Positions 3,559-47,566 of a stretch of 64,000 bases of DNA are shown here, in pieces. The stretch is taken from positions 11,751-75,750 of the forward strand of contig JBGGMJ010000197.1 in assembly GCA_041288095.1 (NCBI GenBank), in the 5' to 3' direction. The notes below the pieces were generated by a model. It ran no database searches. It worked only from the letters and a program-made list of their open reading frames with translations, and was not told where the DNA came from. Positions within the stretch are counted from its first letter, which is position 1. Every line of letters starts with the position of its first letter. The position numbers and the translations under genes are program-made. The stretch comes from Myxococcota bacterium. GTDB lineage: Bacteria; Myxococcota; XYA12-FULL-58-9; JALHOP01.

Positions 3559-4113
3559 CTAGGTCAGCTCGAGTGCGTTAGCCTTGCTGCCGTAGTACTC
3601 GAACCGCGCCGTCACGTGGAGTCGTCCGTCCACGTTCGTGATGCGGAGCTCGCCCGGTCCGTCACCGCGGTCTTCGCCAAAGCGGACAACGAGACCGTTG
3701 CCTTCGCGGAACAGCTCGTTCGCCAAGCTATAGAGGCGATTGCTCTTGCGGTCGTAGACCAGCTCTTCCGGGAGGACCGTGCCGCGGACGAGCAGTCGCG
3801 CAAGCTTTTCGCCCTCACCTGGCGCGAGGGCACCGGCGAAGGAGCGGGCCGCCTCGGGCAGCACGCCCATGGCGAGGCGCGCCCGTAGGACCACCCGGTC
3901 GGTCGGCACGCCGTCGTGGAAGGCAAAGGACACGTCGGGCTGGCCGGCGCGCGTGAGTCGGTGCACCGGGCCGTCGCTACGATCGGTCGTCCCCGTCTTG
4001 GTGATGAGGATGCCGTCGCGCGCAAGCTCTGCCACGATGAGGCCGTGGCGGTCCTTGGGGGCGGCTTGGTCGACGACTTGGCCCGCGGACGGACCTTGCA
4101 CGGATAGACTCAT
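3559..4113 (-). CDS. Hypothetical protein with low-complexity N-terminus (candidate regulon member)
   Basis: Protein-like ORF converging on the DUF507-like gene with a 1 nt gap; no recognisable domain; shared motif ends 6 nt before the ATG. Confidence 0.65.
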   Translation of the reverse strand: MSLSVQGPSAGQVVDQAAPKDRHGLIVAELARDGILITKTGTTDRSDGPVHRLTRAGQPDVSFAFHDGVPTDRVVLRARLAMGVLPEAARSFAGALAPGEGEKLARLLVRGTVLPEELVYDRKSNRLYSLANELFREGNGLVVRFGEDRGDGPGELRITNVDGRLHVTARFEYYGSKANALELT

Positions 4114-4119
4114 GCCCAC

Positions 4120-4146
4120 TTATCGGGGCGACTCCTTCGCGGTTCC
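4120..4146 (-). promoter_or_regulatory. Bipartite GGAAC-N14-CCCGATAA motif, copy 1
   Basis: Minus strand reads GGAAC cgcgaaggagtcgc CCCGATAA gtgggc ATG. Confidence 0.6.
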
Positions 4147-4223
4147 TCGAACCGCCCTGCCGCCATGTCGGCCCATCAGCGTGGGTGTGCGGCAAATCAT
4201 TCTCGGGAGCACAGGAGTGGCGC

Positions 4224-4250
4224 GGAACGGCCGGGTGGCTCTGGCGATAA
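4224..4250 (+). promoter_or_regulatory. Bipartite GGAAC-N14-GGCGATAA motif, copy 2
   Basis: GGAAC ggccgggtggctct GGCGATAA, 28 nt upstream of ATG 4279. Confidence 0.55.
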
Positions 4251-4278
4251 CGCAGCACCCCTATCCCGTGAGAGATTC

Positions 4279-5736
4279 ATGAACGTCGGCTCAATCCGTC
4301 CGCCGCGGCAGACTATTCCCACATCTTCCGTGGCACCGACTATCGCCGCCGCTCCCCGCGACACCGTTGAACCGCGCTACAACTGGAACAATCGCATCGC
4401 CATCAAGCCGCGCGCCTTCTACGAGCCCTCGAGCGAGGACGAGGTTTGCGCCATCGTGAAGCACGAGCGCTCTGTCCGCTGCGGCGGAGGGCTGCATTCG
4501 TTCAACGGTGCCATGGCGCCCGACCCCACCGGTGCCTTCATCGACATGCGGCGCATGAACCGCATCGACAAACCGGTCAAACACGCGGACGGCAGCGTGA
4601 CCGTGACCGCTCAAGCGGGCTGCACTCTCAAGCAGATCGGCACCTACCTGCGGGGCTTGGGCCTCGCGCTCGAGAACCTACCGACCAGCGCGGACATCAC
4701 CTTGGGCGGGGCGATCGCCAACGGCGTGCACGGCTCGGGTCTCACCTCTCCCGCCGTGCTCGCCGAGCAGGTCGTCGGCATGACGACCGTCAACAGCGCG
4801 GGCGAAAAGGTCACGGTCGCTGAAGCGGACTTGCCGCTGTACCGCATCAACATGGGCCTCTTGGGCGTCACCACCAGCTTCACCCTGCGCGTCGTGCCCG
4901 ACTTCGATCTGGTGATCGCCGATGACGCCGTCACCGGCGAAGACGAGGTCATCGCACGCCTCGAGCCTTCGCGCTTGCGGCGCGAGGTGAGCCAGTTCCA
5001 GAGCGCAACCTATCTCATCGACTTCAACCTCGAGGATCCCGCCGCCACCAGGCTCAGGCGCAACCTGCTCGTCAAAGTCACCGACGAGAATCGCTCCGAG
5101 ATCGAAGCGCGCAAGCTGCCGCGCAAAGAGGACTACGATCTTCCCCCCGAAACGGTGCGCCGAGCCTATCAGCAGGCCTTCGAGGCCGCGGCCGCGGGCG
5201 GCACGAGCGCGCGCGGCAAGGAGCTGTCCCGCAAGATCCGTGGCGGTTTCGCGCAACCCAAGGAGCCGCGCATCGGCCGCTCGTCGCTCATGTACCAGAT
5301 CTGGCTCGACCTGCCGGCGCACGATGTCAGCTATGGCGTACCGTTCGAGAAGGCCCAAGAAGCCTTCAAGCGCGTCATGACGGAGCTGCGCTCGCTCGGC
5401 TACGAGGCGATGGTGCCGTTGTCGATGCGCTTCCTATCCGGCACCGACAAGACGCTGATGGGCATGAACAGCGGCCGCGACGTGGTCAGCTTCGAGCTAC
5501 TCACCTCGACGGCGACCGACGGCAAGGGAGGCGTGCTGCGACCTGACGTGCTGGCCGCGCAAGTGGCCTTCGAGCGCGTCATGGCCGAGATGGGCGCGCG
5601 GCCGCACTGGGGTAAAGAGTACGATGTGAGCCCGCGCGACCGCTTCGCCCCCGAGGTCTGGCAGCGCTTCGCCGACGAGGCGAAGAGAGTCGGCGCCAAG
5701 TTCAAGAACGCCTGGTCGGCGGCCTTTACGCCGTAG
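4279..5736 (+). CDS. FAD-linked oxidase, L-gulonolactone / D-arabinono-1,4-lactone oxidase (ALO) family
   Basis: FAD_binding_4 features (NWNN, P-SEDEV, GGGLHSFN with the covalent-FAD His, ITLGGAIANGVHGSG, MGLLGV) and C-terminal ARPHWGK motif. Confidence 0.88.
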   Translation: MNVGSIRPPRQTIPTSSVAPTIAAAPRDTVEPRYNWNNRIAIKPRAFYEPSSEDEVCAIVKHERSVRCGGGLHSFNGAMAPDPTGAFIDMRRMNRIDKPVKHADGSVTVTAQAGCTLKQIGTYLRGLGLALENLPTSADITLGGAIANGVHGSGLTSPAVLAEQVVGMTTVNSAGEKVTVAEADLPLYRINMGLLGVTTSFTLRVVPDFDLVIADDAVTGEDEVIARLEPSRLRREVSQFQSATYLIDFNLEDPAATRLRRNLLVKVTDENRSEIEARKLPRKEDYDLPPETVRRAYQQAFEAAAAGGTSARGKELSRKIRGGFAQPKEPRIGRSSLMYQIWLDLPAHDVSYGVPFEKAQEAFKRVMTELRSLGYEAMVPLSMRFLSGTDKTLMGMNSGRDVVSFELLTSTATDGKGGVLRPDVLAAQVAFERVMAEMGARPHWGKEYDVSPRDRFAPEVWQRFADEAKRVGAKFKNAWSAAFTP

Positions 5737-6552: not shown

Positions 6553-6588
6553 TTTATTACCCCGACTTACCCCCACGAGCCACGCGCC

Positions 6589-9320: not shown

Positions 9321-9446
9321 CGCCGGGAAATGGCACGCGAGCTCTGCCCTGTGAACCCCGCGCCGCCTGACAGCGTAGCGGGGCGCGACGGACGCGGCAA
9401 ACTAGCGGCGCAGCCGCGAAACAGGTGCCGTACGGCGAAAACGGCG

Positions 9447-10897: not shown

Positions 10898-10921
10898 CCG
10901 ACAAGCTACGCTAAAACGAAC

Positions 10922-15573: not shown

Positions 15574-15599
15574 GGAACACTCGGCGGATTTGCCGATAC
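15574..15599 (+). promoter_or_regulatory. Bipartite GGAAC-N13-GCCGATAC motif, copy 3
   Basis: GGAAC actcggcggattt GCCGATAC tggagccg ATG(15608); a second GGAAC lies at 15566. Confidence 0.55.
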
Positions 15600-15607: not shown

Positions 15608-16063
15608 ATGTTCGACATCGGCCCACCGCCCCCTCCGTCACAGCCCAAGCCGGCTGCTCCCCGCGAGCTGGCGGTGTCGACGCTCTTGCCCCGGCAGGCC
15701 GTCGTGAAGGTCGCCGAGCCGCCCAAGGACGTCGTTCAAGTCCTGCTCCAACCGCCGCCCGAGCCGCCGGTCCCCGGCACCTTCTTGGGGCCGCTCACCG
15801 TGCGCGTCGACAACGCCCTGAAGCCGGTGCTGCGCCTCGGACCGCCTCTGATCTTTCTGGCCGGCACCGCCGCCGGCGCGCTGGCCTGCGTGGCCGCGGG
15901 GAGCATCGCGGCCCTCGCCGGCTACGATCCACAGCCTTTCTTCGCCGCCACGGAATACGCAATGCCGGCCGGCACCATTGGCTTGCCCGCTGCCCTGATC
16001 TTCATCGGCTTTCGCGCCGAGGCGGTTCGTAGGCGCTATCGCGACGCTGGACGCATCATTTAG
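15608..16063 (+). CDS. Hypothetical membrane protein with Pro-rich N-terminus (candidate regulon member)
   Basis: GGAG just before ATG 15608; MFDIGPPPPPSQPKP leader; two C-terminal hydrophobic segments. Confidence 0.6.
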   Translation: MFDIGPPPPPSQPKPAAPRELAVSTLLPRQAVVKVAEPPKDVVQVLLQPPPEPPVPGTFLGPLTVRVDNALKPVLRLGPPLIFLAGTAAGALACVAAGSIAALAGYDPQPFFAATEYAMPAGTIGLPAALIFIGFRAEAVRRRYRDAGRII

Positions 16064-18688: not shown

Positions 18689-20074
18689 ATGGTGAACGTT
18701 CGGCCCGAATTGCCCCGCGTCGTCCTCGTTGGGGTGCAGATCGACGGCGTCAGCGACGTCGAGCATGCGGCGCATCTCGCCGAGCTAGGCCGCCTATGCA
18801 GCACGCTGGGGTGGCGCGTCGTCGCCACGGTGACGCAAAAGCGGCAAGCGCTGTCGCGCGGCAACGTCTTGGGCGAAGGCAAGCTGCAAGAGCTCGCGAA
18901 GATCACCGGGGGCACCGGCGTCGTCGGCTCACGCGCACCCAAGCGAACGTCGAAGGCCAAGGAGAAGTGGCAAGCCGACGGAGAAGACGACAGCGCTGAG
19001 ACCGCTGAAGCGGACAACGCCGAAGCGGACGAATCCGATGGCGGCGTGGAGACCAACGGCGAGCAGGCCACGATGGTCGTCGTCGACCACGAGCTGTCGC
19101 CCAACCAACTCTCGAACCTCGAGCGCGCGACCGGCGTCTCCGCCATGGACCGCAGCGGCGTCATCGTCGAGATCTTCCACCGCCACGCCCGCAGCCGCGA
19201 AGCTCGCTTGCAGGTCGAGATAGCCCGCCTCAATTACTTGGCGCCGCGCTTGCGCGAGTCAGCCGGATCCTCCGAGCGCCAGCAAGGACGCGGAGCTGGT
19301 GACACCGCGGTCGAGCTCGATCGCCGGCGCATCCGTGATCGGCTGGCGGAGCTACGTCGGGAGCTCGACTCCATCTCCGGCGACCAAGCAAATCGGCGCT
19401 TCGCGCGCCGCGATCAGCTGCGCGTCGCGTTGGTCGGCTACACCAATGCCGGCAAGTCGTCGTTGCTGCGCGCGTTGACCGGCAGCGAGGTGCTCGTCGC
19501 CGATCAGCTCTTCGCGACCCTCGACACCACGGTGCGCGCGCTCCATCCCGAGACCAAGCCACGCATTCTCGTGTCGGACACGGTCGGGTTCATCCAGAAG
19601 CTACCGCACGATCTGGTGGCGTCGTTTCGCTCGACGCTCGACGAGGCGATGGAGGCTTCACTCTTGCTGTACGTCGTCGATGCGTCGGACCCGACCTTCG
19701 AGAATCAGCTCGCGGTGACGCACGACGTGCTCGGTGAGATCGGTGCCTCCGAGGTGCCGAGCAGGCTGTTGTTGAACAAGGTCGATCGCCTGAGCGCCGA
19801 GCAGAAGGATGATCTGCGCCGCCGTTACCCTGATGCGATCCAGCTATCGGCGCATGCCAAGGAAGACGTCGCGCGCTTGCGCGAGCACATCATCGCTTAC
19901 TTCGAGGAAGCGATGCTCGAAGAGGATTTGCTCATTCCTTATTCGCGCCAGCAGAACATCTCCGAGATCTACGCCAACGCGCGGGTCATCTCGGAGAGCT
20001 TCGATGAAGAGGGGCGAACGCTGCGGGTGCGGGCGTTGCCGGCGGCTTTGGCGAAGTTGCGGTTGCTGGCTTGA
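18689..20074 (+). CDS. hflX: GTPase HflX
   Basis: LSPNQLSNLE, EIFHRHARSREARLQVE, G1 GYTNAGKS, LFATLDTT, DTVGFI, SFRSTLDE, NKVD. Confidence 0.93.
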   Translation: MVNVRPELPRVVLVGVQIDGVSDVEHAAHLAELGRLCSTLGWRVVATVTQKRQALSRGNVLGEGKLQELAKITGGTGVVGSRAPKRTSKAKEKWQADGEDDSAETAEADNAEADESDGGVETNGEQATMVVVDHELSPNQLSNLERATGVSAMDRSGVIVEIFHRHARSREARLQVEIARLNYLAPRLRESAGSSERQQGRGAGDTAVELDRRRIRDRLAELRRELDSISGDQANRRFARRDQLRVALVGYTNAGKSSLLRALTGSEVLVADQLFATLDTTVRALHPETKPRILVSDTVGFIQKLPHDLVASFRSTLDEAMEASLLLYVVDASDPTFENQLAVTHDVLGEIGASEVPSRLLLNKVDRLSAEQKDDLRRRYPDAIQLSAHAKEDVARLREHIIAYFEEAMLEEDLLIPYSRQQNISEIYANARVISESFDEEGRTLRVRALPAALAKLRLLA

Positions 20075-20102
20075 AGTGAGGGGGCTCGAGAAGCTCGTGT
20101 CC

Positions 20103-20846: not shown

Positions 20847-22672
20847 GAGCTCACGCGCGTGCCCTGCACGAGTTGTTCGAGCCGCGCCTTAAGGGGCCGC
20901 GAAGGATGCGCGGCCAAAGCTTTGACGAAGCACGCGTGCGCTTCTTCACGCTTTCCCCTGGCGCGGTAGGTTTCACCAAGGTGCAGCAGAATCTCAGGAT
21001 CATTCGTCGAGCCCCGCATGGCGCGCACCAGCAAGCGCTCGGCGAGCTCGTAGCTCTGCTTGCGGAAGGCCAGCCAGCCGAGGCTGTCGACGATGAAGCT
21101 CTCTTCGGAGCCCAGACGATAGGCGTGGCGCAGATGCACTTCGGCTTCCTCGAGATCGCGCCCCGCGTCCGCCAAGGTGAAGCCGAGCGCGTTCAAGCGC
21201 GTCGCGTCCTCGGGCTGCTCCTCGACCATGGCGCGCAAGATGGTTACCGCCTCGTCGAGACGCCCGTTGCGTGCCAATGCGTCCGAGTAGCGCATGCGCA
21301 GGTCGGCGCTGCTCTTGTCGACGGCGTGCAACGCCCCGATGAGCGCCATTGCCTCGGCCTCGTGCCCGAAATGCTGGGCGAGGGTTGCCGTCGCGAGGCC
21401 TTGCTCGTGGTTGCCGAGGCCCGGCGCCTTGAGGAAGAGCGCGAGCTTGCGACGCGCGACCATTTCGTCGGGCTCGAGCGCCAGCACGCGCGAGGCATCG
21501 AGCGCCATCTCGCGACGCGAAGCCCCGGCGCTCAGGGCGCGCTGCAAGAGCGCTAGAGCTTCGTCGATGCGGCCGCTCTCGCCAAGACAGCCGGCGCGCG
21601 TGCGCACGACGTCGAGCGTGTCGCCCACGTGCTCGAGCTCCGCCAGACATTGCTTGGGATCGCCACTCTCGCGGTACGCCTCGGCGATGAAGGCGGAGAG
21701 CTGCGCCGGCGACGGTCCCAGGCCGTCCGCCGTGGCGGTCTTGCGCATCTCGCTGACGAGGGTGAGCCCGGCCGCGAGATTTCCTTCCGCGATGTCGCCG
21801 CTCGCGACGACGCCGCGGGCAATCAGGTCGGTACCGGCGATACGCAACGCCTCGACCCTGTACGCTTTAGCAGACGATGACCCGGCGCGTTCGTAGAGGC
21901 GAGCGACCTGAACGTACAACCCGACGTCATCCGGCTCGTAGGCGAACAGCTTGGCAAGGCTCGCGGCCGCGTCGGCGGGCCGCCCCATCAGGTCGAGGAC
22001 CCGCATCTCGCCGAAAGCTGCGTCCCGCGACCCAGGCTTCTGCTCGCGCGCCCGTTGGTAAGTAGCGAGCGCCGTGCCGAGGCGCCCGTGATCCTCGAGG
22101 ACGCCGCCGAGCTGGGCCGCGAGATCGTCACGACCGGGATAGGCGTTCATCAAGTCGATGACTCGCCCCTCCGCTTCAGCGGTCTTGCGCTGCCAGGCCA
22201 AGGCGTCGGCGAGCCCACTCCCCGCCACCAGAACCGTGTGCTCGTCGGCGAGGCCGTGCATGAGCAATGCGACCGCCTCACCGTAGCGTTTGTTGCGGCG
22301 GGCCAGCTCGCCCGCCATCGTCGTCAGGTAGGGATCGGTCGGCGCCCGCGCCAATCCGTGCTCGAGCACGTCGCGGGCACGATCGAGGCGCCCTTCCGAG
22401 ACCCAAGCCTCGGCGAGCTTCTGATGCAGGTAGCCGGAATCGGCGTCGTACAGCAGCGCCAGTCGGAAGTGCGCGATGGCCGCTCCCGAGTAGCCATTCT
22501 CGAGAAAATACAGCCCCTGCATGACATGGGTAACGCCGGCCGGCGCGAGCTGCGCCGCGTCAACCGGAACCGCGATGAGGTGGTCACCGCTCGGCGCCGG
22601 CCGCGGGGCGGGTGGCGTCGCGGCGCAGGCCACGAGCAAGGACACGACGAGCGCCGGCGCCGCTCGGCACAT
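20843..22672 (-). CDS. Tetratricopeptide-repeat lipoprotein
   Basis: Lipobox LLVA-C; C-terminal LNALGFTLAD, IVDSLGWLAF, DPEILLHLGE typical of this TPR family. Confidence 0.85.
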   Translation of the reverse strand: MCRAAPALVVSLLVACAATPPAPRPAPSGDHLIAVPVDAAQLAPAGVTHVMQGLYFLENGYSGAAIAHFRLALLYDADSGYLHQKLAEAWVSEGRLDRARDVLEHGLARAPTDPYLTTMAGELARRNKRYGEAVALLMHGLADEHTVLVAGSGLADALAWQRKTAEAEGRVIDLMNAYPGRDDLAAQLGGVLEDHGRLGTALATYQRAREQKPGSRDAAFGEMRVLDLMGRPADAAASLAKLFAYEPDDVGLYVQVARLYERAGSSSAKAYRVEALRIAGTDLIARGVVASGDIAEGNLAAGLTLVSEMRKTATADGLGPSPAQLSAFIAEAYRESGDPKQCLAELEHVGDTLDVVRTRAGCLGESGRIDEALALLQRALSAGASRREMALDASRVLALEPDEMVARRKLALFLKAPGLGNHEQGLATATLAQHFGHEAEAMALIGALHAVDKSSADLRMRYSDALARNGRLDEAVTILRAMVEEQPEDATRLNALGFTLADAGRDLEEAEVHLRHAYRLGSEESFIVDSLGWLAFRKQSYELAERLLVRAMRGSTNDPEILLHLGETYRARGKREEAHACFVKALAAHPSRPLKARLEQLVQGTRVSS

Positions 22673-24981
22673 CAGTTCTGAGTTTCCGGAGCCTTCGTGG
22701 CGTCGTCTTCCGGCGTCGGATCGACGGGCGGCTGGAACGGTGGCGGCGCTCCACGAATGATCGTCGGTGAGTCTGGCGGGGTTTGGATCTCGGGAGGCGT
22801 GCCGTCGCGCGGCTCAGGCGGAGGCGTCGGACGCGGCGCTGGGTCGCGTCGTGGCTGCTGCTCGGGCTTCGGCGTCGGGGGCGCGGCCGGCTTCGGCGGT
22901 TGGGGCGCGGGCTCCGTCTTCGCTTCGGGTGCCTTCGCGGTCTCGGGGGCCTTCGCCGTCTGCGGGCTCTTGCCGCTGGTCGGGGTCGCCGGCGCTTCGG
23001 GCATCACGGTGAGGAGGTCCTTGGCTTTCCGATGGTCCGCGTTCGCGGCCAGTACCTCGGTCGCGAGGTCGCGGGCGCGGCCGACCTCACCGCGTGCCGC
23101 CTCCAGCCGGGCGAGCTCGAAACGAGGCCGCTGCCAACGTGGCTCGAGCGTCATGGCGCGTTCGAGTGCGGCGCGCGCGCCGGCCGCATCACCTTCGAGG
23201 TTACGCAGCGTCGCTTGCAGGTACGCCGCATACGCCGTCGGCGGCGGCGCGTCCTCGGTGGCGTGAGCGAGACGCATGCCGCGCAGGTATGCGTCGCGCG
23301 CATGTGCCCGCTGATCCTCGTCGAGGGCGTAGTAGATGCCGGCGGTGAAGGCGAGCTCGGCGCTCTCGTCGTTCTTGCGCGACAAGACGCGGCGCGCGTG
23401 CGCGAGCTCCGCCGACGCCGTGGCGAGCATCTGCGATGACTGCACGACCTCGCCTTCGGCGACCATGTTCTGGGCGGCGGCGCGCACATCGACGCCACGG
23501 AACACCGATGCGATGCCATAGATGACGCGGGCATCCGCGTTCGAAGGATCGATGTCCAAGATGTCGTTCGCGGCCTTGGCGGCGTCGCGATAGCCGACGT
23601 CGGTGTCTGCGAGCAGCGCGGTGCGGGCGTTGGTCGTGAGCTCCTGCACACGCGGGTCACTCGGGCCCCGGATATGCATGATCTGCAACACCGACTTGCC
23701 GGTGAGGAGGGGCATCATTCCCAAGACGAGGGCGACGATCAGCACGAGCCCGGACACACCGAGGATGGTGTTGCGGTGCTTACCGCGCAGCCCGATCTTC
23801 GAGAAGACGCTGTCCTCGTCATCGAACTCGCGTGGGTCGATGCGCGGGTTGCTGTCGCGACGCATGCGCGCGACGTCTTCGTCGTCGAACGGCGGCCGGC
23901 GCGTCTTGGGCCGTCCCTTGCCGTCACTGCCGGTGCGAACACGCGAACGCATGACCGCCTGAGGATCTGGAGCGCCCCAGTTGGTGGCACCGGCACGCGA
24001 GCGCTCGTTGACCGCCATCGGCACGATGGCGCGCGGAGCGGTCTCGTCGCGCGACTGAACGACGGTCGGCGCGTCGTCGAGGACTTCGGCGTCTTCGGGG
24101 CCGGGGCGCACACCCGCCGCGTGAGCGAATGGCTTGGTGATCTCCTCGGGAATGGGCGTGTCGATGGGGCCCGAGGCGGTCGGACCTTCGGCGATCGATT
24201 CCCCGAAGCTCGGCCTCGCGTCCGTCGCGGCGGAGCCGGGCGCGTCCACCGTCGTCTCTTCGTCCGGATCCATCATCGACGCGCGCCCTGTTTCGGTGGC
24301 GAGCACCCGCCCCACTTCAGGCTCCGAGCTCTCTTCGTCGAGCACTTCCGCGTCGAGCGGACGCAGCAAGTCGACCGCCGCGGGAATCGTGTCGTCGTCG
24401 TGCTCGATCGAATCAGGCGGCAGCTCCGCCACAACGTCCGGATCACCGACGCGCGTCAGCCGGAACGGGTTGGCGCACTGCGTACAAGGCGCTTCGACCC
24501 CACCGCGGGGAATGTCATTGGCCGCGAAAGCGTACACCGTTTCGCACGCGGGGCAGGCGATGCTGAACTGGAGCTCGGTAGCCTCGGCGAGGCCGGCGTT
24601 CGTCGAGAGGCCGCCTCGGCCACCCACCGGCAGCACCGTAACCGTGGCGGGGCCGTCACGGCCGGCGCGTGGTTTTTGCCGCGGAGTGACGTCGGTGACC
24701 ATCGGCGCCGTGCCCACGCCGGTCGCGGCACGACTCGCGGTGGCCTGGGATGCCACCGTGCGTGCCGACTTGGGCGCCAGGGCGGGAGGCGCGAGCCAGG
24801 TGTCGATCATCGACATGCTCGGCAGCGCGATCGGCGCCTCGTTGCCCGAGGCGTCGGGTGCGACCACGAAAATGCCGCTGCAGTTGGCGCATTGCGCGTC
24901 GTAGCCCGCCTGGGGAATGAGCGAGCGCTCGAACTGATAGCGCGCGCCGCAGTGCGGGCATGTGACCTGCATCAACATCAT
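22672..24981 (-). CDS. MJ0042-type zinc-ribbon membrane protein with periplasmic TPR-like region
   Basis: CPHCGARY...CANC and second CPACETVY...CTQC ribbons, disordered linker, one TM helix, TPR-like helices, Pro-rich tail. Confidence 0.8.
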   Translation of the reverse strand: MMLMQVTCPHCGARYQFERSLIPQAGYDAQCANCSGIFVVAPDASGNEAPIALPSMSMIDTWLAPPALAPKSARTVASQATASRAATGVGTAPMVTDVTPRQKPRAGRDGPATVTVLPVGGRGGLSTNAGLAEATELQFSIACPACETVYAFAANDIPRGGVEAPCTQCANPFRLTRVGDPDVVAELPPDSIEHDDDTIPAAVDLLRPLDAEVLDEESSEPEVGRVLATETGRASMMDPDEETTVDAPGSAATDARPSFGESIAEGPTASGPIDTPIPEEITKPFAHAAGVRPGPEDAEVLDDAPTVVQSRDETAPRAIVPMAVNERSRAGATNWGAPDPQAVMRSRVRTGSDGKGRPKTRRPPFDDEDVARMRRDSNPRIDPREFDDEDSVFSKIGLRGKHRNTILGVSGLVLIVALVLGMMPLLTGKSVLQIMHIRGPSDPRVQELTTNARTALLADTDVGYRDAAKAANDILDIDPSNADARVIYGIASVFRGVDVRAAAQNMVAEGEVVQSSQMLATASAELAHARRVLSRKNDESAELAFTAGIYYALDEDQRAHARDAYLRGMRLAHATEDAPPPTAYAAYLQATLRNLEGDAAGARAALERAMTLEPRWQRPRFELARLEAARGEVGRARDLATEVLAANADHRKAKDLLTVMPEAPATPTSGKSPQTAKAPETAKAPEAKTEPAPQPPKPAAPPTPKPEQQPRRDPAPRPTPPPEPRDGTPPEIQTPPDSPTIIRGAPPPFQPPVDPTPEDDATKAPETQN

Positions 24982-27413: not shown

Positions 27414-29738
27414 TCAGGGCGACTGCCCCTCGTAGGCCTTGAGCAGCTCTTCCACCTGCCGAGCGTCTTTGGCGTCGGGCATCACGCGCAAGTACATGCG
27501 GTAGTACTTCGCCGCCTTCGGACCGTTCTTCTGACGGGCGTAGGCGATGCCCAGGGCGCGATAGCACATGCCTGCCTTGGTGTCCGCTTTGACGCACTTG
27601 TCGAGCAGATCGATCGCCTTGTCGGTCTCTTGCGACTGCAAGGCTTGCAGCCCCGCGGTGTAGTAGCCCTTCGCGTCCATTGGTGGCTCGGCCGCCGGCT
27701 TCGGCTGCGGCGGAGGAGTCGGACGCGGCGCTGCTTGTTGCGGTGCCGGTTGCGGCGGCGTGGGCGCGGGTTGCGGCGGCGGCGTAGGAGTCGGCACCGG
27801 GGTCGGTTGCGGCGCGGGCACCGGCGGCGGCTGCTGCACGACGAGGGGCGCGGAGGCCTTCTGCGGTTGCTGCTTGGGGTCGTTCTTCGCCCGATCCTTG
27901 GCGCGGCCATCGCGGTCACGTCCGTCACGCGGCGGCGGAGTTGCCTCGCGATTGTCGGCTACGAGCTCATGACCGCCACCACGCTCGAGCTCCGCGACCT
28001 GGCGCTGGAGGCCAGGCAGCTCGGGCGAGAGCGGATCCATCTCGTTGATCTCGTTCAACGAGCGGCGAGCTTCCGCGACCTGGGCCGCGGCGATGTAGCG
28101 CTTGGTCTCCTCGATCTTGGCGATGACCCGGCCGGCGCGAACCTGGCCACGCAAGCTCACGGACTGAGTGTGCGCCGAGGTCGACTCCGGCACCTCCGAC
28201 AGCGAGCGCCAAGCGTCGTCCCAGTTGCGAGCTTCGATGGCGCGCACGGCGCGGTCGAGCGCGTTCTGGCCGATGATCTCGTCGGTGGCGCGCTGCTTGA
28301 TTTCTTGCGCCTCGCCGTCGGCGGGGTTCAAGACGAGGAGCGCGTCCGCGAGCTTGCGGGCCTCGTTCCACTCGCGTTGCAGCATCGCGGTCTTGGCGCG
28401 TTGCCGCATGTCCTGCGCGTCGGCGTTCGGTGTGTTGTCGACCTGGCGAATCGGACGATCACCGGTGCCCGCGGTCACGGACCCGCTATTGCGGCCGCTG
28501 ATCGAGAAGATCGCGATGCCGCCGATGATCACCACCGCGAGGGCCGAGACCCCCGCGACGATGAGCGGCTTCATGCGCTTCTTGGTGTGGATGATCGAGA
28601 GCTCGTCGCTCCACTGATTGATGGCGGTCGGCGCCGTCGAGATGATGCCGCTGAGGTCGCGGTCCGACGATTGGACGGTCTCACGCGCCTGTGGTGGCGC
28701 CTGGATGCGGCTCTGCGCGGCCGGCGGCAGCGCACCGCCTCCAGCCTGCCGGAGCGCCGCGACCTCTTCGGCGTTGAAGTCGTAGGTCGCGCCGGGCGGC
28801 AAGAAGCGGAACTTCACGTGGCCCAGCTCGATGAGATCACCGCGCTTGAGCTCGGTCTGGGCGTACTCTTCGCCGTTGACCAAGGTGCCGTTCGCGCTCT
28901 TCAAATCCATGATGCGGTAGGAGCGCTGATTGACGACGATCTTGGCGTGGTGGCGCGACACCGATCGATGGTCGATGGGGATGTCGTTCTCGTCGGTGCG
29001 GCCGATCACGACCTCGGTCTTCTCGATCTCGTATTCGGCACCCGCGAACTGAGTGCTCACGCAGATGAGCTTGGCCTTCTGGCCCGCGAGTCCCGAAGCC
29101 TCCGCCCTGCCACGGCGCTCGCTGTCGCCGTGATCCATGCGAATGAGCGCCGTCGGCTCGGGGCGGTTGGCGTCGTCGTCCACGACCGGCGCGCGGCCTT
29201 GCGGCATGTCGACACGCGACAGCCCATGAGCCTCGGCGTGCGCCGCTCCGTTCGAGACGCTCCCCGCGTGGCTGGGCGCTCCCAGCGGCGGCAGACCCTG
29301 CGTTGACGGCGATAGCGGACCGCCGTTCATGGCGTGCTCGAGGCGAATGTCAGGTCGCGTCGGCTCGGAGCCCTCGCCTACCATGGTACGTTGAGTGGTC
29401 TCTTCGACGCGGCGTTGCAGACCTTCGCCACGGAGCTCGAGCTGGAAGTCGCCGACCCGGATGGTGTCGCCGTCGTGCAGCTCCTGGCGCCCCTTGATGC
29501 GGTCGCCGTTGATCCACACACCGTTGTAGGAATCCAGATCCTCCGCGAAAATCCCCATCGGATCGCGGACGAAGCGCGCGTGACGTCGGGAAACATTCCG
29601 CTCGTTGAGGCGGATGGTGTTGCCCTCTTGGCGCCCGATGCTGATGCCGTCGCTCACACTGGACACATCGAGCGGCACGACACTGCGGCGGCCTTCATCG
29701 TCTTCGATGATGAGCTTGAAGCTCGAGTTCTCGCTCAC
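27414..29738 (-). CDS. Double-FHA-domain membrane protein with periplasmic TPR region
   Basis: FHA1 (IGRQEGN...NVSRRHA...SYNG), FHA2 (IGRTDEN...SVSRHHA...SANG), TM helix, TPR-like helices, P/Q-rich linker, terminal TPR. Confidence 0.88.
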   Translation of the reverse strand: MSENSSFKLIIEDDEGRRSVVPLDVSSVSDGISIGRQEGNTIRLNERNVSRRHARFVRDPMGIFAEDLDSYNGVWINGDRIKGRQELHDGDTIRVGDFQLELRGEGLQRRVEETTQRTMVGEGSEPTRPDIRLEHAMNGGPLSPSTQGLPPLGAPSHAGSVSNGAAHAEAHGLSRVDMPQGRAPVVDDDANRPEPTALIRMDHGDSERRGRAEASGLAGQKAKLICVSTQFAGAEYEIEKTEVVIGRTDENDIPIDHRSVSRHHAKIVVNQRSYRIMDLKSANGTLVNGEEYAQTELKRGDLIELGHVKFRFLPPGATYDFNAEEVAALRQAGGGALPPAAQSRIQAPPQARETVQSSDRDLSGIISTAPTAINQWSDELSIIHTKKRMKPLIVAGVSALAVVIIGGIAIFSISGRNSGSVTAGTGDRPIRQVDNTPNADAQDMRQRAKTAMLQREWNEARKLADALLVLNPADGEAQEIKQRATDEIIGQNALDRAVRAIEARNWDDAWRSLSEVPESTSAHTQSVSLRGQVRAGRVIAKIEETKRYIAAAQVAEARRSLNEINEMDPLSPELPGLQRQVAELERGGGHELVADNREATPPPRDGRDRDGRAKDRAKNDPKQQPQKASAPLVVQQPPPVPAPQPTPVPTPTPPPQPAPTPPQPAPQQAAPRPTPPPQPKPAAEPPMDAKGYYTAGLQALQSQETDKAIDLLDKCVKADTKAGMCYRALGIAYARQKNGPKAAKYYRMYLRVMPDAKDARQVEELLKAYEGQSP

Positions 29739-31003: not shown

Positions 31004-31008
31004 GAGGT

Positions 31009-31713: not shown

Positions 31714-32602
31714 TGCCGCCGAGCAAGTAAGGAATCGCGCGGCTCACGTCTTCGCCAGTGCGGTATTTGCTCGCGATGTACCACTGCGTCGTCAGGAACA
31801 GGGTCGGCTCGCGGAACTTGCCGGTCTTCTCGAGGCTGAGCTTGTAGGCGATGATCGGGCCCATGCGATCGGTCGGAAGATTGTCGGGGTCGCGATCCTC
31901 TCCGGGGAGGAAAACCCAGTCGGGGTAGATGGCGGTGATCAGCGTGTTGCGGACCCCCACGGTGAGCCGGTCGGTCACCAACCACAAGAAGTCGCTGTCG
32001 TTCTGAATGACCCAGCCGCGCTTGGGTGTGGCGATGTCCCAGACGAAGTCGTAGTACACGGTGTCGCTGCCCTGGAGATTGGCGTGCAGGTACGAGCCGA
32101 CCGTCTCCGAGCGCACGACGAAGCGCTTCACCTTCATCTGCAATAGCAGAGCGATGTTCCACTGGTGGATCCAGGCGGAGTACGAGGGGCGATTCTCGGC
32201 TTGGCTCGGCCGGTAGTCGGCGTTGGGCGACTGAAAGGACTGCAAGCTGTCGAAGGTGCCCCAGTAGTAAATGGGCGTGTACGAGGCGGAGAGGCGCAGG
32301 ATGTTGATGGGCTGAGCGGTGATGCCGACGCCGGGGCCGATGGTCGCGGGTGAGGCGAAGAGAGTGGCTTCGGCGCGGACGTAGGTGCCGGCCCAAAGAG
32401 GATCGGTCTCGTCGGCCGAGGCCAGCGGCTTGGTGAGACGGAGCTGGAATTGCTCGAAAAGGCCGAGCGGATTGATACGGGCGCCCGTGGTGCTGGAGTA
32501 GGTGGGGACGAGCTCGGCTCGCGCGGGACTCGCCAGGAGAAGCAGGAAGGCGACGACCGAGAGGCGAGTGCTACCGATTGCCGACATCCGATCTCCGATC
32601 AT
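31694..32602 (-). CDS. Hypothetical secreted protein, probable outer-membrane beta-barrel
   Basis: Signal peptide ([11 protein letters not shown]), aromatic-rich amphipathic strands, C-terminal [11 protein letters not shown]; start could be 32587. Confidence 0.7.
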
Positions 32603-34200
32603 GACTTGTCCGCTTTAGCGAGCTCGTCTTCGATATCGATGCCGTATTCCTCGAGCTTGCGGTGGATGGTCGAGCGCGAGATGCCGAGCGCCGATGCCGC
32701 ATCCGTCTTGTTGCCCCGGTGTTTCACCAGCTCTGCGACGATGGTGCCGCGCTCGACGTCAGCCAGCGTACGGCCGTCGCCGCTGCCGCCGCCGGTTCGG
32801 GCCTTCGACGTGCTCGGCGGGAAGACGACGTCGGTGGTCGTGAGAACATCAGCGGTGCGCATGAGAACGGCGCGCTGCACGACGTTGCGTAGCTCGCGGA
32901 CGTTCCCCGGCCAGCGGTGGCCGTTGAGCAGGCGCATCGCGGCGTCGTCGAAGCGCACACGCTCGCCCTCCGGCACGAGCTGCTCGAGGAAGAAGGCTAC
33001 GAGCTCGGGAATGTCCGCGGCGCGGTCGCGTAAGGGCGGCAGCGGCAAGGCGAGCACATGCAAACGGTGGAAGAGGTCTTCGCGAAAGCGATTGGCCGCG
33101 ACCTCTTCCTCGAGACGTCGATTGGTGGCGGCGATGACGCGAACGTCGACCTTGACGTCTTCGTTGCCGCCGACGCGGTGGACCTCGCCAGTCTCGAGGA
33201 CGCGCAAGAGCTGTGGCTGCAGGTCGGTGGGCAGCTCACCGATCTCGTCGAGGAACAACGTGCCGCCATGGGCTTGTTCGAAGGCACCGGCCTTGCGCGA
33301 CACCGCGCCGGTGAACGCGCCTTTCTCGTGACCGAAGAGCTCGGACTCGATGAGCGTTCGCGAAAGCGCTCCGCAGTTGATGGCGACGAACGGTTTGCCG
33401 GAGCGTTTGCCGTGCGACGCGATGAGGCGGGCCACGACCTCTTTCCCGGTCCCGGTTTCGCCGTGCAGCAGCACCGGCGCATCGTTCGCCGCCATGCGCT
33501 CCGCCAGGGTCCGCACGCGCAGCGCCTTGTCAGAACCGCCGACATATCCGGATGCTGGAAGCTCGGTGTCCGCTTCAGCGGTCGCTGGCAGCACCTCGAT
33601 GTCGATACGGCCAATGCGCACGGTCGCTGGCGGAACGACCTCGGCGGCTTGCACCTTTTGCTCGCCGATGAACACACCGTTGCGGCTGCCGACGTCGTGG
33701 ACCATGCAGCGACCGTTTTCCAGCACGACGCGCGCATGGAAGCTCGACACATAGGGGTCGGCGAGGACCACGTCGTTGCTCACGTCGGAGCCGACGGTGA
33801 CACCGCGCTTGCCGATGTCGTGCGTGCGCTCACCGACCTTGAGCACGAAGGCAGCGCCCGCCTTGGTCTCCCGGTGCAGGGTACGCGTGCCTTCTCCAGA
33901 TGGGTTCCCGCCGCGATAGCGGACGGTCGCGGTGACCGGACCGAGCTGGATCACGTCACCGTCGGCTAGGCGGGCCTCGCTGCTGACGATCTCGCCGGCG
34001 ACCCGCGTGCCGTCTTTCGACTCGTCCACCAGGACGAGCAGCGGGCCCGAACGGCGCAAGGTGCACTGGAACGGCGCAACCGCCGCGTCCGGCACCGAGA
34101 GATCACAGTCGGGGTTACGGCCGATGCTGAACAGAGGCGTATCGATGCTGCGCCACAATGTGTCGCGGCCGCCTACCGTGAGCATCAAGCCGACCTGCAT
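32599..34200 (-). CDS. Sigma54-dependent enhancer-binding protein with two FHA domains
   Basis: FHA ([14 protein letters not shown]...GSRNG), AAA+ [39 protein letters not shown], Fis-type HTH. Confidence 0.94.
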
Positions 34201-34227
34201 CGGCGTGTCTTAGCGCGAAACCCGGCG

Positions 34228-34566
34228 TCAGCGAAATGCGCTTGCGCGCTTGCGCCGCGCCCGAAAGGCACGGAGGCGCCGCCATTGGTGGATGCCCCAG
34301 AGGATGGCGCTGCCGACCGGCCGCCGCAGGACCGGCACGTCTTGAGCGATGAGCATGAGCCCGAGCGGCAGCATGTAGAGACCAAGCACCGGCAGGAACC
34401 AGAGGAAACCCGCGACGATGAAGAGCAGAGCCAGCGGGATCCGGAGCTTGCGGCTCTTGGGGTCGCGCAGCCAGCGCAGCATGCGGGCCAGGCGCTCCGG
34501 CACCTCTTCTTCGAGCCGGTCGAAGGCCTGGTCCAAGGTCTGTTTTCCGTCGTCGCCTTCAGCCAT
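34228..34566 (-). CDS. Small conserved membrane protein
   Basis: RIPLALLFIVAGFLWFLPVLGLYMLPLGLMLIAQDVP hydrophobic hairpin; AGGT RBS. Confidence 0.75.
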   Translation of the reverse strand: MAEGDDGKQTLDQAFDRLEEEVPERLARMLRWLRDPKSRKLRIPLALLFIVAGFLWFLPVLGLYMLPLGLMLIAQDVPVLRRPVGSAILWGIHQWRRLRAFRARRKRASAFR

Positions 34567-34630
34567 CGACCTACGATGCGCACCCCAGACAGCGCCGCCA
34601 CGCCACCATGACGTTTTGTCATGTTTTCAC

Positions 34631-34658
34631 GAAACGAAAGGCGGGGGTCGGCCGATAA
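34631..34658 (+). promoter_or_regulatory. Bipartite GAAAC-N15-GCCGATAA motif, copy 4
   Basis: GAAAC gaaaggcgggggtcg GCCGATAA; the second element is a perfect sigma28-type -10 box, 50 nt upstream of TTG 34709. Confidence 0.6.
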
Positions 34659-34666
34659 AGACATAG

Positions 34667-34689
34667 ATCCCCAGAAACTGGGGATTTTT
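34667..34689 (+). other. Terminator-like hairpin in the leader of the 1045 aa gene
   Basis: Stem ATCCCCAG / CTGGGGAT, loop AAA, followed by TTTT. Confidence 0.5.
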
Positions 34690-34708
34690 CGGCTTCCGGG
34701 AGTCGCGC

Positions 34709-37700
34709 TTGAGTGATTTGGCGCCAGATCGAGTGGGAGCAGCGCGTCACGTCCGCGCAGTCAGCACCACCGAGGCCGAGCAGCCGGCGGCCCGTCCCCG
34801 CCTGGTCGAGCCGAACGCCCGTACCGTCCGCATCCCGGCTTCCTACCAGGCGCGCCTTCAGGTCCCTGGATCGCAGCGCCTGACTCGCCTCCCAGGCAGC
34901 GCCCCGAACGATCAAATCGCGCGCCGCGTCGCGCAAGCCGCGAGCGCCGACGAGCTCATCGAGATCTTCGCCGGCATGCCGGCCCGACAACGGGCCGAAG
35001 TCGCGCAAGCATGGCTCGCGCAAGCACAGCGCCGCCGCGTGCCCGGCGACCAGGCACTGGCGGCGCTCACGGAGCACGTCGGCCGCTTCGGCAACCGCGC
35101 CGAGCGCGTGCTCCTCGAAGACATCGTCCGCCCGGAGAACCAGAGCGGCATCATCTCCGACGCCGCGACCGTCCACCTCGACCTGCAAGGCTTGATGTTC
35201 TTCGAGCACCTCGGAATCGGCGCGCCCAACCACGAAGCAGCCGCGATGTTGCTCGAGCGCCGTAGCCAGCGCGAGATCGATGCCCTCGACGGCGATCTCC
35301 GCAACCGCTTCGGCTCGACGCTCGCACAGCGCGTCGACGCGGTACCCGACGCACGCGGCCGGGCACGCCTGCAGTTCCTCACCAACCGCGCCAACCGAGA
35401 CCGCAACGGCGAGCTATCGCCGGGCGCCGTCGACGCCTGGTCGGTGCGTGAGGGTCTCGGCGGCTTCAGCTTCATGGAGCGCTTCGAGCGCTCGCTCCCC
35501 TGGAACGACGACAACTCCCGCGCCGCCACCATCCAGCAGATGTTGACGATGACGCCGGAGCGCGCCACGGCGATGCGGCGGCAATACGCCAATGTCCGCG
35601 GTGACGGACCACGCATCCCGGAGCCCACCGAAGAAGTGCGCGGCCTCGGCGACTACCGCTTGCGCCAAGCGGCACGCGGTCTCGCGCTCGATCCCGATCG
35701 CACGCACAGCAACACCGTCATCGAGGATCAGACGCGCCAAGTCGCGCGCTACATCGCGGCGACCATCTTGCACCGGGAGCAGCGCGGCGCGACCCGCGCC
35801 GAGGTCGAGCAAGCGGTTGCCATGGTGCGCCCGAACCTCGCATCGGGCCAGCAACGCGACGGCCGCGCTAGCTTCGATGACGTGGCACGCGCCTACTACG
35901 AGATGTCACACGAGGTACGTGGCGAGCGCCCGCAGCCGTGGCGCGGCCAGGGTGGCTTGAGCGACGCCGAGCGCGCCCGCTGGAAGCAGAATGTCGGTGC
36001 GCGGATCCAGGGGGACGTCCCGCGCGCGGACGTCGACGGTCTGCTCGCTGGTCGTGGAGCCGATTCACCGCAAGCGCGCGCCGGCCGCATCGCTCGCGCC
36101 GCTGCCGGCAACTTCGTCGGCCCCTACCTCGACGAGCTCAACCGCGCGCTCGACCTGTCACGCATTCCAGCCGAGCAGCGACCGCGCTACCTCGCCGAGA
36201 TGCGCGCGACGTTCCGCCAAGGCGGACGCGATCTCGACACCATCGTTCGTGAGCGCGCCGGCCGCCCCCTCACCCTCCCCACCGGCCGCCAAGTCCCTTC
36301 GCAAGCCATGGCGACGCTCGCGGCCAACGGCACGCTCAGCGACGAGCAACGCATCATGTACGCGCTCCACGACAAGGGCCCGATGGGCGCCGGCCGCCCG
36401 CGCCTCGGTGACATCGGCGCCATCGGGACAGAGCTCACCCCGCTCGACCGTCACCTCGCGCGCCAGCGCTACCAGGCGCTCACCGGCGGCAACTTGCTCG
36501 AGGACCTGGGCAACGTCCAGGGCTACGAGGCCCGCCTCGCCGAGTCGGCCTTCCACATCTCACCGTCCGACAACAACGCCATCGCGACGCAGCTCATCAC
36601 CATGACGGTGCCGCTCAGCGCCGAGAACCTGCCGCCGGGCGTGAGCCTCCGCCAGGCCCAAGCCGCGCGCGACCGCTACTGGGCAACCGTTTTCCCGGAC
36701 CGCGCGCAACGCGAAGCATTCCTGCGCCCCTTCCAAGGGCCGGGTGCTCCGCAGGCGGTCATGGATTTCGCGGCGCGCGCCATCGACCGGCCCGAGGTGA
36801 TCACCGGCAGCCTGCAGCGCTTGATCGGCGAGGCGGAGGGCACACGCTTCGCCGCCGCGGTCACGAGCATCTTCGGCCACCGCAACGCCCGCGAGCTCGC
36901 CAACGGCAAGTATCAGACGGTCCGCAATCTGCTCGCCGGTGCCGCCGCCAACGGTTGGCGCGAGCAGGACCTGGCGACCATCCCGCCACAACAGCTCGCC
37001 GGCCTCATCGCCGAGGTTCGTGCCCGCGCCCGCCAGCAAGGCGTCGCCGTCGACCGCTTGAGCGACCAAGCCGTGACCATCATGACGCTCGCGGCGCTTG
37101 GGCTCGGTGGCGGCTTGAATCCGCTGGCGGCCGCCGGTCTCACTGCTCTCGCCCGGGTCGGTGCCCGCGCCGCGACTGGCCGCTTGAACGGACAGCTCAT
37201 GCGCGAGGCGATGCTCGGTGCCTTGCCCGGCCTCACGTTCGGCGTGGCCCGCTATTTCCCGACCGGTCTCGTCGGCACCTCGCTCGCCGGCGGCTTCGCC
37301 TACTCCGGCTTCAATCTCCCCAATCACATCAGCAACGCGCCACTGCACGACCCAGCCGTGGCCTTCGAATACATCAGCCGTAACTCGGGCCGCGACTTCG
37401 TCTTCGGCACCGCGACCACCGCCGCGTTCTACGCGGCGATGCGGGCCATGGTGCCCAAGCGTGAACGTCCACCGACGTCGCAACAACCGGGAGGCAACCA
37501 GCCGACCCCGGGCCGCGGCGAGCCGCCGCTCGATCGCCCAGTCACTCCGGATCGCCCGACCAACCCCGGCGGTCGGCCCGGCGTCGGCCCGACGCAGACC
37601 TCCACGCCCGGCGGTCCCCCGCAGCGGCCCAGCGTACGCCCCGATGTGCAAACCGGCACGACGCGCCTTCCCGCCGAACGCGTCAGCAGCGGTGTCCGCC

Positions 37701-37846
37701 CGAGCGGATCAACTCCGGCACGCGACATTCCCGCGCGCACCCAGCCCGTACCGCCGCGGACCGGCCAGCACGGAACCGTCGGGAGTCCGGTCGGCGAGCG
37801 CGTCGGTAGCGGCGTCGTGCCCGCGGCCCGTCCGGGTGCCCGCTAA
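34709..37846 (+). CDS. Large hypothetical protein (annexin-like helical motifs, hydrophobic C-terminal helices, Pro-rich tail)
   Basis: 1045 aa ORF, TTG start with GGGAG RBS, no Sec signal; motifs FGSTLAQRV, FRQGGRDLDTIV, YQALTGGNLLEDL; Gly/Ala-rich hydrophobic stretch near the C-terminus. Confidence 0.8.
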   Translation: MSDLAPDRVGAARHVRAVSTTEAEQPAARPRLVEPNARTVRIPASYQARLQVPGSQRLTRLPGSAPNDQIARRVAQAASADELIEIFAGMPARQRAEVAQAWLAQAQRRRVPGDQALAALTEHVGRFGNRAERVLLEDIVRPENQSGIISDAATVHLDLQGLMFFEHLGIGAPNHEAAAMLLERRSQREIDALDGDLRNRFGSTLAQRVDAVPDARGRARLQFLTNRANRDRNGELSPGAVDAWSVREGLGGFSFMERFERSLPWNDDNSRAATIQQMLTMTPERATAMRRQYANVRGDGPRIPEPTEEVRGLGDYRLRQAARGLALDPDRTHSNTVIEDQTRQVARYIAATILHREQRGATRAEVEQAVAMVRPNLASGQQRDGRASFDDVARAYYEMSHEVRGERPQPWRGQGGLSDAERARWKQNVGARIQGDVPRADVDGLLAGRGADSPQARAGRIARAAAGNFVGPYLDELNRALDLSRIPAEQRPRYLAEMRATFRQGGRDLDTIVRERAGRPLTLPTGRQVPSQAMATLAANGTLSDEQRIMYALHDKGPMGAGRPRLGDIGAIGTELTPLDRHLARQRYQALTGGNLLEDLGNVQGYEARLAESAFHISPSDNNAIATQLITMTVPLSAENLPPGVSLRQAQAARDRYWATVFPDRAQREAFLRPFQGPGAPQAVMDFAARAIDRPEVITGSLQRLIGEAEGTRFAAAVTSIFGHRNARELANGKYQTVRNLLAGAAANGWREQDLATIPPQQLAGLIAEVRARARQQGVAVDRLSDQAVTIMTLAALGLGGGLNPLAAAGLTALARVGARAATGRLNGQLMREAMLGALPGLTFGVARYFPTGLVGTSLAGGFAYSGFNLPNHISNAPLHDPAVAFEYISRNSGRDFVFGTATTAAFYAAMRAMVPKRERPPTSQQPGGNQPTPGRGEPPLDRPVTPDRPTNPGGRPGVGPTQTSTPGGPPQRPSVRPDVQTGTTRLPAERVSSGVRPSGSTPARDIPARTQPVPPRTGQHGTVGSPVGERVGSGVVPAARPGAR

Positions 37847-47563: not shown

Positions 47564-47566
47564 GCG

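Follow-up and report, generated by a model that had tools for sequence, protein, structure and literature searches.

The 64,000-nucleotide stretch analysed here, referred to as the window, comes from a Myxococcota bacterium (assembly GCA_041288095.1, contig JBGGMJ010000197.1, positions 11,751 to 75,750; C197:11751-75750 in our contig numbering). A first-pass annotation had proposed that one bipartite promoter-like motif precedes four accessory genes in the window and is read by a dedicated alternative sigma factor. We followed the motif through the source genome and related genomes, where it leads to a large regulon, to a FliA-like sigma factor that probably reads it, and to a needleless type III secretion system (T3SS*) that may export many of the products. 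The source assembly (G000) comprises 5.85 Mb in 212 contigs (66% GC) and is 90% complete; G001, G002, and G003 are its congeners. A purpose-built hexamer model called 5068 genes in G000, with approximate start positions. All four sites are present where they had been placed, on the same strands, and are listed here with spacers counted to CGATA, start codons given as ATG or TTG, and scores from the position weight matrix (PWM) described below. Two intragenic CCGATAA copies (52820, plus strand; 44108-44102, minus strand) have no -35 partner, as had also been observed.

4146-4120 (4120..4146), minus strand: site 1, promoter variant GGAAC-N16-CGATAA; PWM score 16.1; ATG 7 nt after CGATA, near-leaderless
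3559..4113, minus strand: site 1 gene, 184-aa orphan without Pfam or NCBIfam family
4224-4250, plus strand: site 2, GGAAC-N16-CGATAA; PWM score 18.1; divergent from site 1; start 29 nt after CGATA
4279..5736, plus strand: site 2 gene, 485-aa flavin adenine dinucleotide (FAD)-dependent sugar-lactone/alditol oxidase (FAD_binding_4 and ALO)
15574-15599, plus strand: site 3, weak variant GGAAC-N15-CGATA; PWM score 10.4 (cut 15); ATG 9 nt downstream
15608..16063, plus strand: site 3 gene, 151-aa proline-rich orphan with only 3 homologues
34631-34658, plus strand: site 4, GAAAC-N17-CGATAA; PWM score 21.2; start 51 nt after CGATA
34709..37846, plus strand: site 4 gene, 1045-aa orphan, no family

A promoter repeated across the genome

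Seeded on the pattern of the first-pass annotation, a two-block matrix converged on (c)GCAAC-N16/17-CGATA(a/c). Plain GCAAC and CGATA pairs, counted with no training, occurred 133 times in G000 at a spacer of 16 and 60 times at 17, compared with 4-15 times at each of 16 other spacers (range 8-25). Matches to G[ACG]AAC-N16-CGATA were intergenic in 146 of 168 cases (intergenic DNA makes up 7.4% of the genome), and the next gene was co-oriented in 138 of 145 (baseline 1836/2907). Using the matrix, which was trained on the same sites it then counted, we obtained 349 hits (score cut 15); 305 were intergenic and 282 lay within 250 nt of a co-oriented start. Shifted-spacer controls for these 282 upstream sites gave 4, 4, 7, and 7. 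The genome scan that had been suggested came out far above chance. Statistically, GCAAC-N16/17-CGATA is a sigma-70-family promoter.

The -10 box of the 282 sites is of the GCCGATAA-like sigma-28 type, with CGATA in 231 and A as the next base in 163. The -35 box is GCAAC in 189 sites, GAAAC in 25, and GGAAC in 3, two of which are in the window. The earlier description of a sigma-28-type -10 with a non-flagellar -35 is therefore upheld, while its HrpL-type GGAAC is not the consensus, and the four window sites are minor variants of the genome-wide promoter. We also rejected the canonical flagellar promoter TAAAG-N16/17-CGATA as the promoter of this regulon; it occurs 4 times in G000 and 1-4 times across the genus, which is no enrichment. 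In-frame ATGs stood 8-12 nt after CGATA in 51 of the 282 cases and at offsets 1-7 in 4, as expected if leaderless messages start just past the -10 box, and transcription probably starts about 8 nt after CGATA.

These counts support a dispersed regulon of about 280 genes rather than four. Sites 1, 2, and 4 score above the cut and site 3 does not. Both boxes of site 2 are conserved in G002 and G003, and both boxes of site 4 in G001 and G002, with diverged spacer sequences in each case; at site 3, the -10 and the ATG 9 nt downstream are conserved in G001 and G002 and the GGAAC -35 is not.

A FliA-like sigma factor encoded with a type III cluster

Two FliA-like sigma factors were found in G000, on contigs C92 and C127, both under the family cut-off. 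The first (C92:35188-36072; 163.7 bits against a FliA/WhiG cut-off of 189.6) is the orthologue of the Myxococcus xanthus FliA/WhiG-family sigma encoded three genes after MXAN_2434. It is the fourth gene of an operon that begins with the MXAN_2434 orthologue, a TPR chaperone, and an unknown gene, and we refer to it as the T3SS* sigma. In a tree of 19 proteins, it grouped with the M. xanthus sigma (91/98) and fell with FliA rather than with extracytoplasmic function (ECF) sigmas; flagellar and solo FliA formed a separate group (95/92), in which the solo branch is long.

Across Myxococcota, genes around the T3SS* sigma are also often preceded by the motif. Of 39 loci, 34 have a TPR gene adjoining the sigma, and sctI- or sctJ-like genes likewise occur there in 34. 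We found a site ahead of the MXAN_2434 orthologue, the first gene of the operon, in 15 of 23 loci (shifted spacers, 1/23) and directly after the sigma in 21 of 38 (shifted spacers, 4/38). We then compared spacers 16-17 with 13-14 across 61 genomes (binomial p < 0.01). Of the 39 genomes that have the T3SS* sigma, 28 showed motif enrichment, compared with 1 of the 22 that lack it; outside the order, the corresponding counts were 10 of 19 and 0 of 20. In the exception, G005, the TPR neighbour gene lies 670 nt from a contig end.

Region 2.4 of the T3SS* sigma matches FliA. Its recognition helix reads GLSKSW(T/A)SR(L/K)H in 37 of 39 loci, compared with GVSESRVSQLH in the solved FliA, so that SKSWTSRLH and SESRVSQLH differ at three positions. 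We propose that the retained region 2.4 accounts for the CGATA -10 and the changed region 4.2 helix for GCAAC instead of TAAAG; judged from sequence, the SRLH change is a plausible cause of the hybrid promoter. Taken together, this evidence makes it probable that GCAAC-N16/17-CGATA is read by the T3SS* sigma. The dedicated alternative sigma that had been postulated thus has a good candidate elsewhere in the genome, which is FliA-like and belongs to a type III cluster rather than being an ECF.

SRLH resembles ECF helices, including those of ECFs in G000. AAC-containing -35 boxes are typical of ECFs, which would fit a reading in which the motif is recognised by an ECF sigma and its association with the T3SS* sigma reflects co-inheritance. 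G000 has 36 sigma-70 region-2 matches, most of ECF size, and upstream of three ECF genes a site lies no more than five genes away. We profiled one ECF-type gene, on C53, across genomes and checked the others for upstream sites. The C53 gene, the best candidate and the one that stands behind a strong site, was rejected for its distribution: it is present in only 13 of 61 genomes and absent from the strongly enriched G003, G004, G011, G019, G029, and G056. The sites of the other two are weak and lie 2-3 genes upstream. Given also that the -10 is of the sigma-28 type and that sites are concentrated around the gene for the T3SS* sigma, we regard an ECF reader as improbable.

Another explanation is that the flagellar FliA, or the solo FliA on C127 with its FlgM-like neighbour, reads the motif and that the proteins leave by the flagellar export gate. 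The congeners have a full flagellar cluster, so G000, at 90% completeness, may have one too. In G001, a complete cluster with a third FliA lies at C2:512001-552000 (L052, L053), and three congeners carry a second FlhA-type gene adjoining a second FliA. Flagellin and hook genes were not found in the G000 assembly, nor were matches to the flagellum-specific genes of the G001 cluster, by loss or assembly gap. Both the flagellar FliA and the C127 sigma have the canonical FliA helix, and the G001 flagellin gene has a TAAAG-N16-CGATG box instead. In G016, which has the flagellar FliA only, TAAAG was found 29 times against 9 for the reversed pattern and GCAAC 40 times against 39. The motif is also present in M. 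xanthus, whose T3SS loci have no flagellar parts according to excerpts of PMC3459982. The solo pair (C127:21759-22853; L008:9759-10853) stands away from flagellar and type III genes; with close matches in 7 of 61 genomes, it is missing from 23 of 29 enriched genomes, and we rejected it on this distribution and its helix. A flagellar reader is accordingly very improbable.

Other sigma factors were noted in passing. The sigma adjoining sctV on C31 was rejected as a reader, as it is RpoH (over the RpoH cut-off). Three odd sigma-70-family proteins are encoded at C32:11187-11840, C203:33343-34050, and C126:34937-35629; those on C32 and C203 group together, beside the ECFs, in the tree.

The needleless type III apparatus

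The window itself holds no type III apparatus; a search of the rest of the genome, as had been suggested, located one on at least four contigs. The C92 cluster encodes SctT, SctS, SctR, a FliO-like protein, SctQ, FliK-like and FliJ-like proteins, SctN, SctL, a FliG-like protein, and SctJ. SctU is on C41, LcrH-type chaperones are on C92, C41, and C10, and one SctV over the non-flagellar (hrcV) cut-off is on C31. G000 therefore has all the parts by which a Myxo-type T3SS* is recognised (SctRSTUV, SctN, SctL, SctQ, SctJ, and LcrH-type chaperones). No SctC secretin was found over the TIGR02516 cut-off in four of four genomes of the genus, whose assemblies are incomplete, and no SctF needle subunit turned up among the cluster proteins scanned, a scan that included no SctF family search.

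The cluster matches that of M. xanthus gene by gene, with the same first four genes. The two systems share an orthologous export apparatus, ATPase, C-ring, FliO, and LcrH-type chaperones, and likewise lack an SctC over the cut-off. According to excerpts of three papers, the M. xanthus T3SS* (mxan_2434-2464) is required for prey lysis (PMC12075869, PMC10433427, PMC12428579), where it works together with Tad/Kil; in the excerpts of the reviews from 2023 and 2025 its effectors are called unknown or hypothetical (PMC10433427, PMC12428579), and lysis is described as accompanied by local peptidoglycan degradation (PMC12428579). The system is described as the basal non-flagellar lineage (PMC3459982). 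The excerpts of these four accounts give no regulator, promoter, or effector, and we propose all three here.

Several further loci were noted in G000. Between sctO, sctN, sctL, and sctK on C92 are orphans whose N-termini are leader-like and one of which has an HD domain (C92:10570-16749 and 19698-21602; L011, L012); these are absent at the same places in M. xanthus. At C181:33054-36441, unknown genes with leaders follow a further chaperone-like TPR gene, with no site at score 12, and one of these proteins is weakly similar to repeats of the M. xanthus T3SS* cluster. Finally, C27:37537-47602 (L189) holds a Tad/Flp locus that includes CpaB together with an FHA protein.

Regulon products and their N-termini

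The regulon comprises 282 genes, or up to 378 with co-transcribed neighbours. We scanned 216 of the 282 against Pfam (66 were not scanned), with controls drawn from the first-in-unit genes of the same loci (60 used of 245 available). Only 34 of the first 161 regulon genes had a family, compared with 40 of 60 controls (p = 6e-10); of a further 54, chosen partly for length, 24 did. Peptidase families made up 17 of 58 regulon Pfam hits and 2 of 40 control hits: S8 (four), M4 (three), S41 and S9 (two each), C11, C26, M20, M24, M28, and trypsin. Other families included two lytic transglycosylases, GH3, GH15, an amylase, a lipase, a polyhydroxybutyrate depolymerase, a non-specific nuclease, a serpin, Fic, and four flavin oxidases. 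Plain metabolic enzymes and kinases are also present.

Hydrophobic N-termini were found in 22 of 269 regulon proteins compared with 619 of 2288 others. Signal-less regulon proteins had more S/T/P/Q/N in residues 2-26 (7.9 vs 6.2, p = 4e-20) and more proline (8.7% vs 5.9%), with bodies alike. Within the same enzyme families, 6 of 53 regulon members carried signals, as did 37 of 110 non-regulon paralogues. For example, a LysM-SLT regulon member has a leader where its four paralogues have signal peptides, and signal-less S41, M20, GH3, M4, and S8 members stand beside signal-bearing paralogues. The window oxidase and six close relatives begin with an unconserved, non-hydrophobic leader of 25-91 residues, while most of 47 distant homologues begin at most 20 residues from the domain or bear twin-arginine-type signals. 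On C10, a strong site drives a leader-bearing gene immediately before an LcrH-type chaperone gene. The combination of no general secretory (Sec) or twin-arginine (Tat) signal with an S/T/P-rich, unconserved N-terminus thus holds for the regulon as a set, statistically, and not gene by gene. The first-pass annotation had described signal-less proteins with low-complexity leaders; the regulon bears this out, and the site 3 protein departs from it with a hydrophobic segment at residues 77-95. In addition, four tandem thermolysin-family (M4) proteases without signal peptides lie behind one site at C69:11926-19568 (L206).

The same data could be explained differently, with the T3SS* sigma reading the promoter but running a broad predation or life-stage programme, a small part of it exported by the T3SS* and most leaders being the disordered ends of young genes. 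A regulon of 282-378 genes among those called is very large, it includes Sec/Tat proteins and cytoplasmic enzymes, and 127 of the first 161 members have no Pfam family; FliA in the attack phase of Bdellovibrio offers a precedent (PMC3627812, in excerpt). The within-family signal deficit described above is against this, as is the oxidase clade, which has a leader where exported homologues have a twin-arginine signal. So are the full-propeptide, signal-less thermolysins that G000 and M. xanthus alike have behind the promoter. On balance, we consider such a broad programme unlikely.

The motif in Myxococcus xanthus and other Myxococcaceae

Proteins of G164 are identical to M. xanthus DK1622 MXAN_2434 and to its FliA/WhiG-family sigma ABF85965.1, which by gene order is probably MXAN_2437. 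GVAAC-N16/17-CGATA had 32 matches in G164, and the reversed pattern had 10. Twelve of 19 GCAAC sites and one GAAAC site lay 6-71 nt ahead of genes with leader-like N-termini (judged by eye). These genes are MXAN_2434 and 2455, the eight unknown proteins MXAN_1566, 2037, 0342, 6562, 6443, 0890, 2874, and 6152, together with a 241-aa unknown, a peptidoglycan-binding Amidase_2 protein (ABF87137.1), and a signal-less FTP-PepSY-M4 protease (thermolysin). The other 19 matches were intragenic, faced no gene, or preceded lipoprotein-like genes, and two more matrix sites fell inside the T3SS* cluster. We regard the motif-preceded genes as candidates for the T3SS* lysis effectors. The G000 regulon is about ten times larger (193 exact sites, compared with 19-20 in Myxococcaceae).

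In G029, whose proteins are named Citreicoccus inhibens, the T3SS* cluster contains 4 of the 20 exact sites, and the motif precedes peptidoglycan-binding CHAP and LysM-SLT proteins. Amidase, CHAP, and LysM-SLT proteins behind the motif in Myxococcaceae match the T3SS*-dependent local peptidoglycan degradation described in excerpts of PMC12428579. One G029 site (L066, G029:C45:48040) is 9 kb from a second SctV-like gene, and the 'short' T3SS(2) locus may therefore share the regulator. Annotation differences were also seen: the DK1622 amidase (203 aa; L166:1573-2418) misses the leader and peptidoglycan-binding domain of the 281-aa form, and several other M. xanthus candidates have annotated starts upstream of the promoter.

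We found none of the candidate locus tags in the supplement text searched for PMC10196010, PMC4158809, and PMC12075869 (the last gave numeric matches only). In the excerpts of PMC8844925, the M. xanthus transcription start site table is limited to fruA, mrpC, and cyclic di-GMP genes.

A proposed export regulon for prey lysis

We propose that the T3SS* sigma, derived from FliA and encoded in the T3SS* cluster, reads GCAAC-N16/17-CGATA and would activate its own operon, apparatus parts, a chaperone-substrate operon, and a few hundred genes dispersed over the genome. Many products have no Sec/Tat signal, and their first 20-50 residues would form an unstructured S/T/P/A-rich leader acting as a signal for type III export. 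Such proteins would cross the inner membrane through the T3SS* and be carried to prey by a second route, the Tad/Kil pilus or type II secretion, where amidases, lytic transglycosylases, proteases, glycosidases, and oxidases may act in digestion. The Tad CpaB locus or the type II operon next to the site 4 gene could take such periplasmic cargo. To this whole reading, a T3SS* sigma promoter with leader-bearing predatory cargo exported by the T3SS*, we assign a probability of roughly 0.6 from the genomic comparisons; for its export step on its own, that a large share of the products leaves by type III export, we lean towards yes.

A number of observations weigh against this reading. The motif is not significantly enriched in 11 of 39 genomes with the T3SS* sigma; the genomes are kin and not independent, so the co-occurrence figure overstates the association, and this profile cannot tell the T3SS* sigma apart from some other regulator co-inherited with the T3SS*. 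Ahead of the apparatus genes of G000, site scores reach only 13-14, and no site precedes sctV. Hydrophobic N-termini occur in about 8% of members, and some members appear to be cytoplasmic (an aminotransferase IV, kinases, a homoserine dehydrogenase fusion), so that, of the exported effectors envisaged earlier, the signal-peptide deficit stands while not all members can be cargo. The leader signal amounts to a modest shift in composition that does not rise with site score, young orphan genes may carry disordered N-termini anyway, and the N-terminal statistics depend on the approximate starts of our gene caller. CpaB of the Tad locus, present in G000, was not found in congeners G001-G003, and coupling to Kil may thus not be general. 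Apart from MXAN_2434, just 2 of 11 M. xanthus/Citreicoccus families have even a weak match to G000 regulon proteins; with almost no sequence shared between the two sets, the cargo is not conserved. Six of the M. xanthus candidates are missing from the MXAN-tagged vesicle/membrane proteome table of PMC4158809, an absence that neither supports export nor bears on contact-dependent export.

A broader version of the export reading joins these parts: the earliest-branching non-flagellar T3SS would have kept the late-gene logic of flagella, with a sigma-28 paralogue whose -35 was re-specified and, in this uncultured lineage, bulk Sec-replacing export of at least 150 digestive enzymes and orphan effectors, and the promoter would mark the prey-lysis arsenal of any myxobacterium, including the M. 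xanthus T3SS* effectors. We offer this joint proposal tentatively, and think it somewhat more likely to fail in one of its parts than to hold throughout.

Comparison with known regulons

The logic resembles that of HrpL in Pseudomonas syringae, an ECF that recognises GGAACC-N16-CCAC and serves a needle-bearing system aimed at plants. In both cases a sigma is encoded in the type III cluster and its box precedes apparatus genes and dispersed genes; where such a sigma transcribes apparatus and dispersed substrates together, the promoter works as an effector finder. Here, by contrast, the sigma is a sigma-28 derivative with a CGATA -10, GGAAC is only a rare -35 variant and CCAC is not the -10, no secretin over the cut-off was found, and the target would be bacterial prey. 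Flagellar class 3 (FliA/sigma-28) promoters share the CGATA(A) -10, recognition by region 2.4, and transcription of late type III substrates. They differ in TAAAG, which is not enriched in the genus, in the altered sigma helix, in the absence of FlgM adjoining the T3SS* sigma, and in the lack of a flagellin target in the G000 assembly. The attack-phase FliA regulon of Bdellovibrio bacteriovorus, as described in excerpts of PMC3627812, is likewise driven by a sigma-28-family factor through a CCGATA-type -10 with a 16-nt spacer and contains many non-flagellar predation genes; its sigma is the flagellar FliA and its -35 TTAAG, whereas here a separate clade in a non-flagellar T3SS has a changed helix and GCAAC, with a flagellar FliA alongside in congeners. 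The regulon is of the sigma-28 type and has HrpL-like logic, both kinds being already known. We found no description of the promoter, the role of the sigma, or the candidates in the literature searched, which did not extend to subscription papers.

If the export reading is true, it would provide a short list of effector candidates in the genetically tractable M. xanthus. It would also be a case in which a sigma-28 paralogue took on a new specificity for a non-flagellar system, with relevance to the descent of injectisomes from flagella, and it would suggest that uncultured Myxococcota hold a very large number of new antibacterial proteins.

Other genes in the window

The 184-aa site 1 protein has two clear homologues with the same body from about residue 15 and differing N-terminal leaders. 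Its gene was not found in the congener stretches compared, and its single-sequence model had a mean confidence (pLDDT) of 42 with Atlas template-modelling (TM) scores of at most 0.40, values too low to be informative about its fold. Homologues of the 1045-aa protein behind site 4 were found in two congeners only (72-79% identity); an Atlas structure match of 0.76 is a lead only. Behind the orthologue of the 151-aa gene lies another motif-driven leaderless gene in G002 and a paralogue of the 151-aa family in G001 (entries L181:1334(-) and L183:1216-809(-)).

Directly after the 1045-aa gene is a type II secretion operon on the minus strand (37858-51697; GspD, E, F, G, pseudopilins, J, K, L/PilM-like, and M), a possible second step for periplasmic cargo. 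Finally, a zinc-ribbon/TPR protein and three FHA-domain proteins are encoded at 22672-24981, 27414-29738, 32599-34200, and 55824-58340. One of the FHA proteins is a sigma-54 activator divergent from site 4; such proteins are ordinary for myxobacteria.

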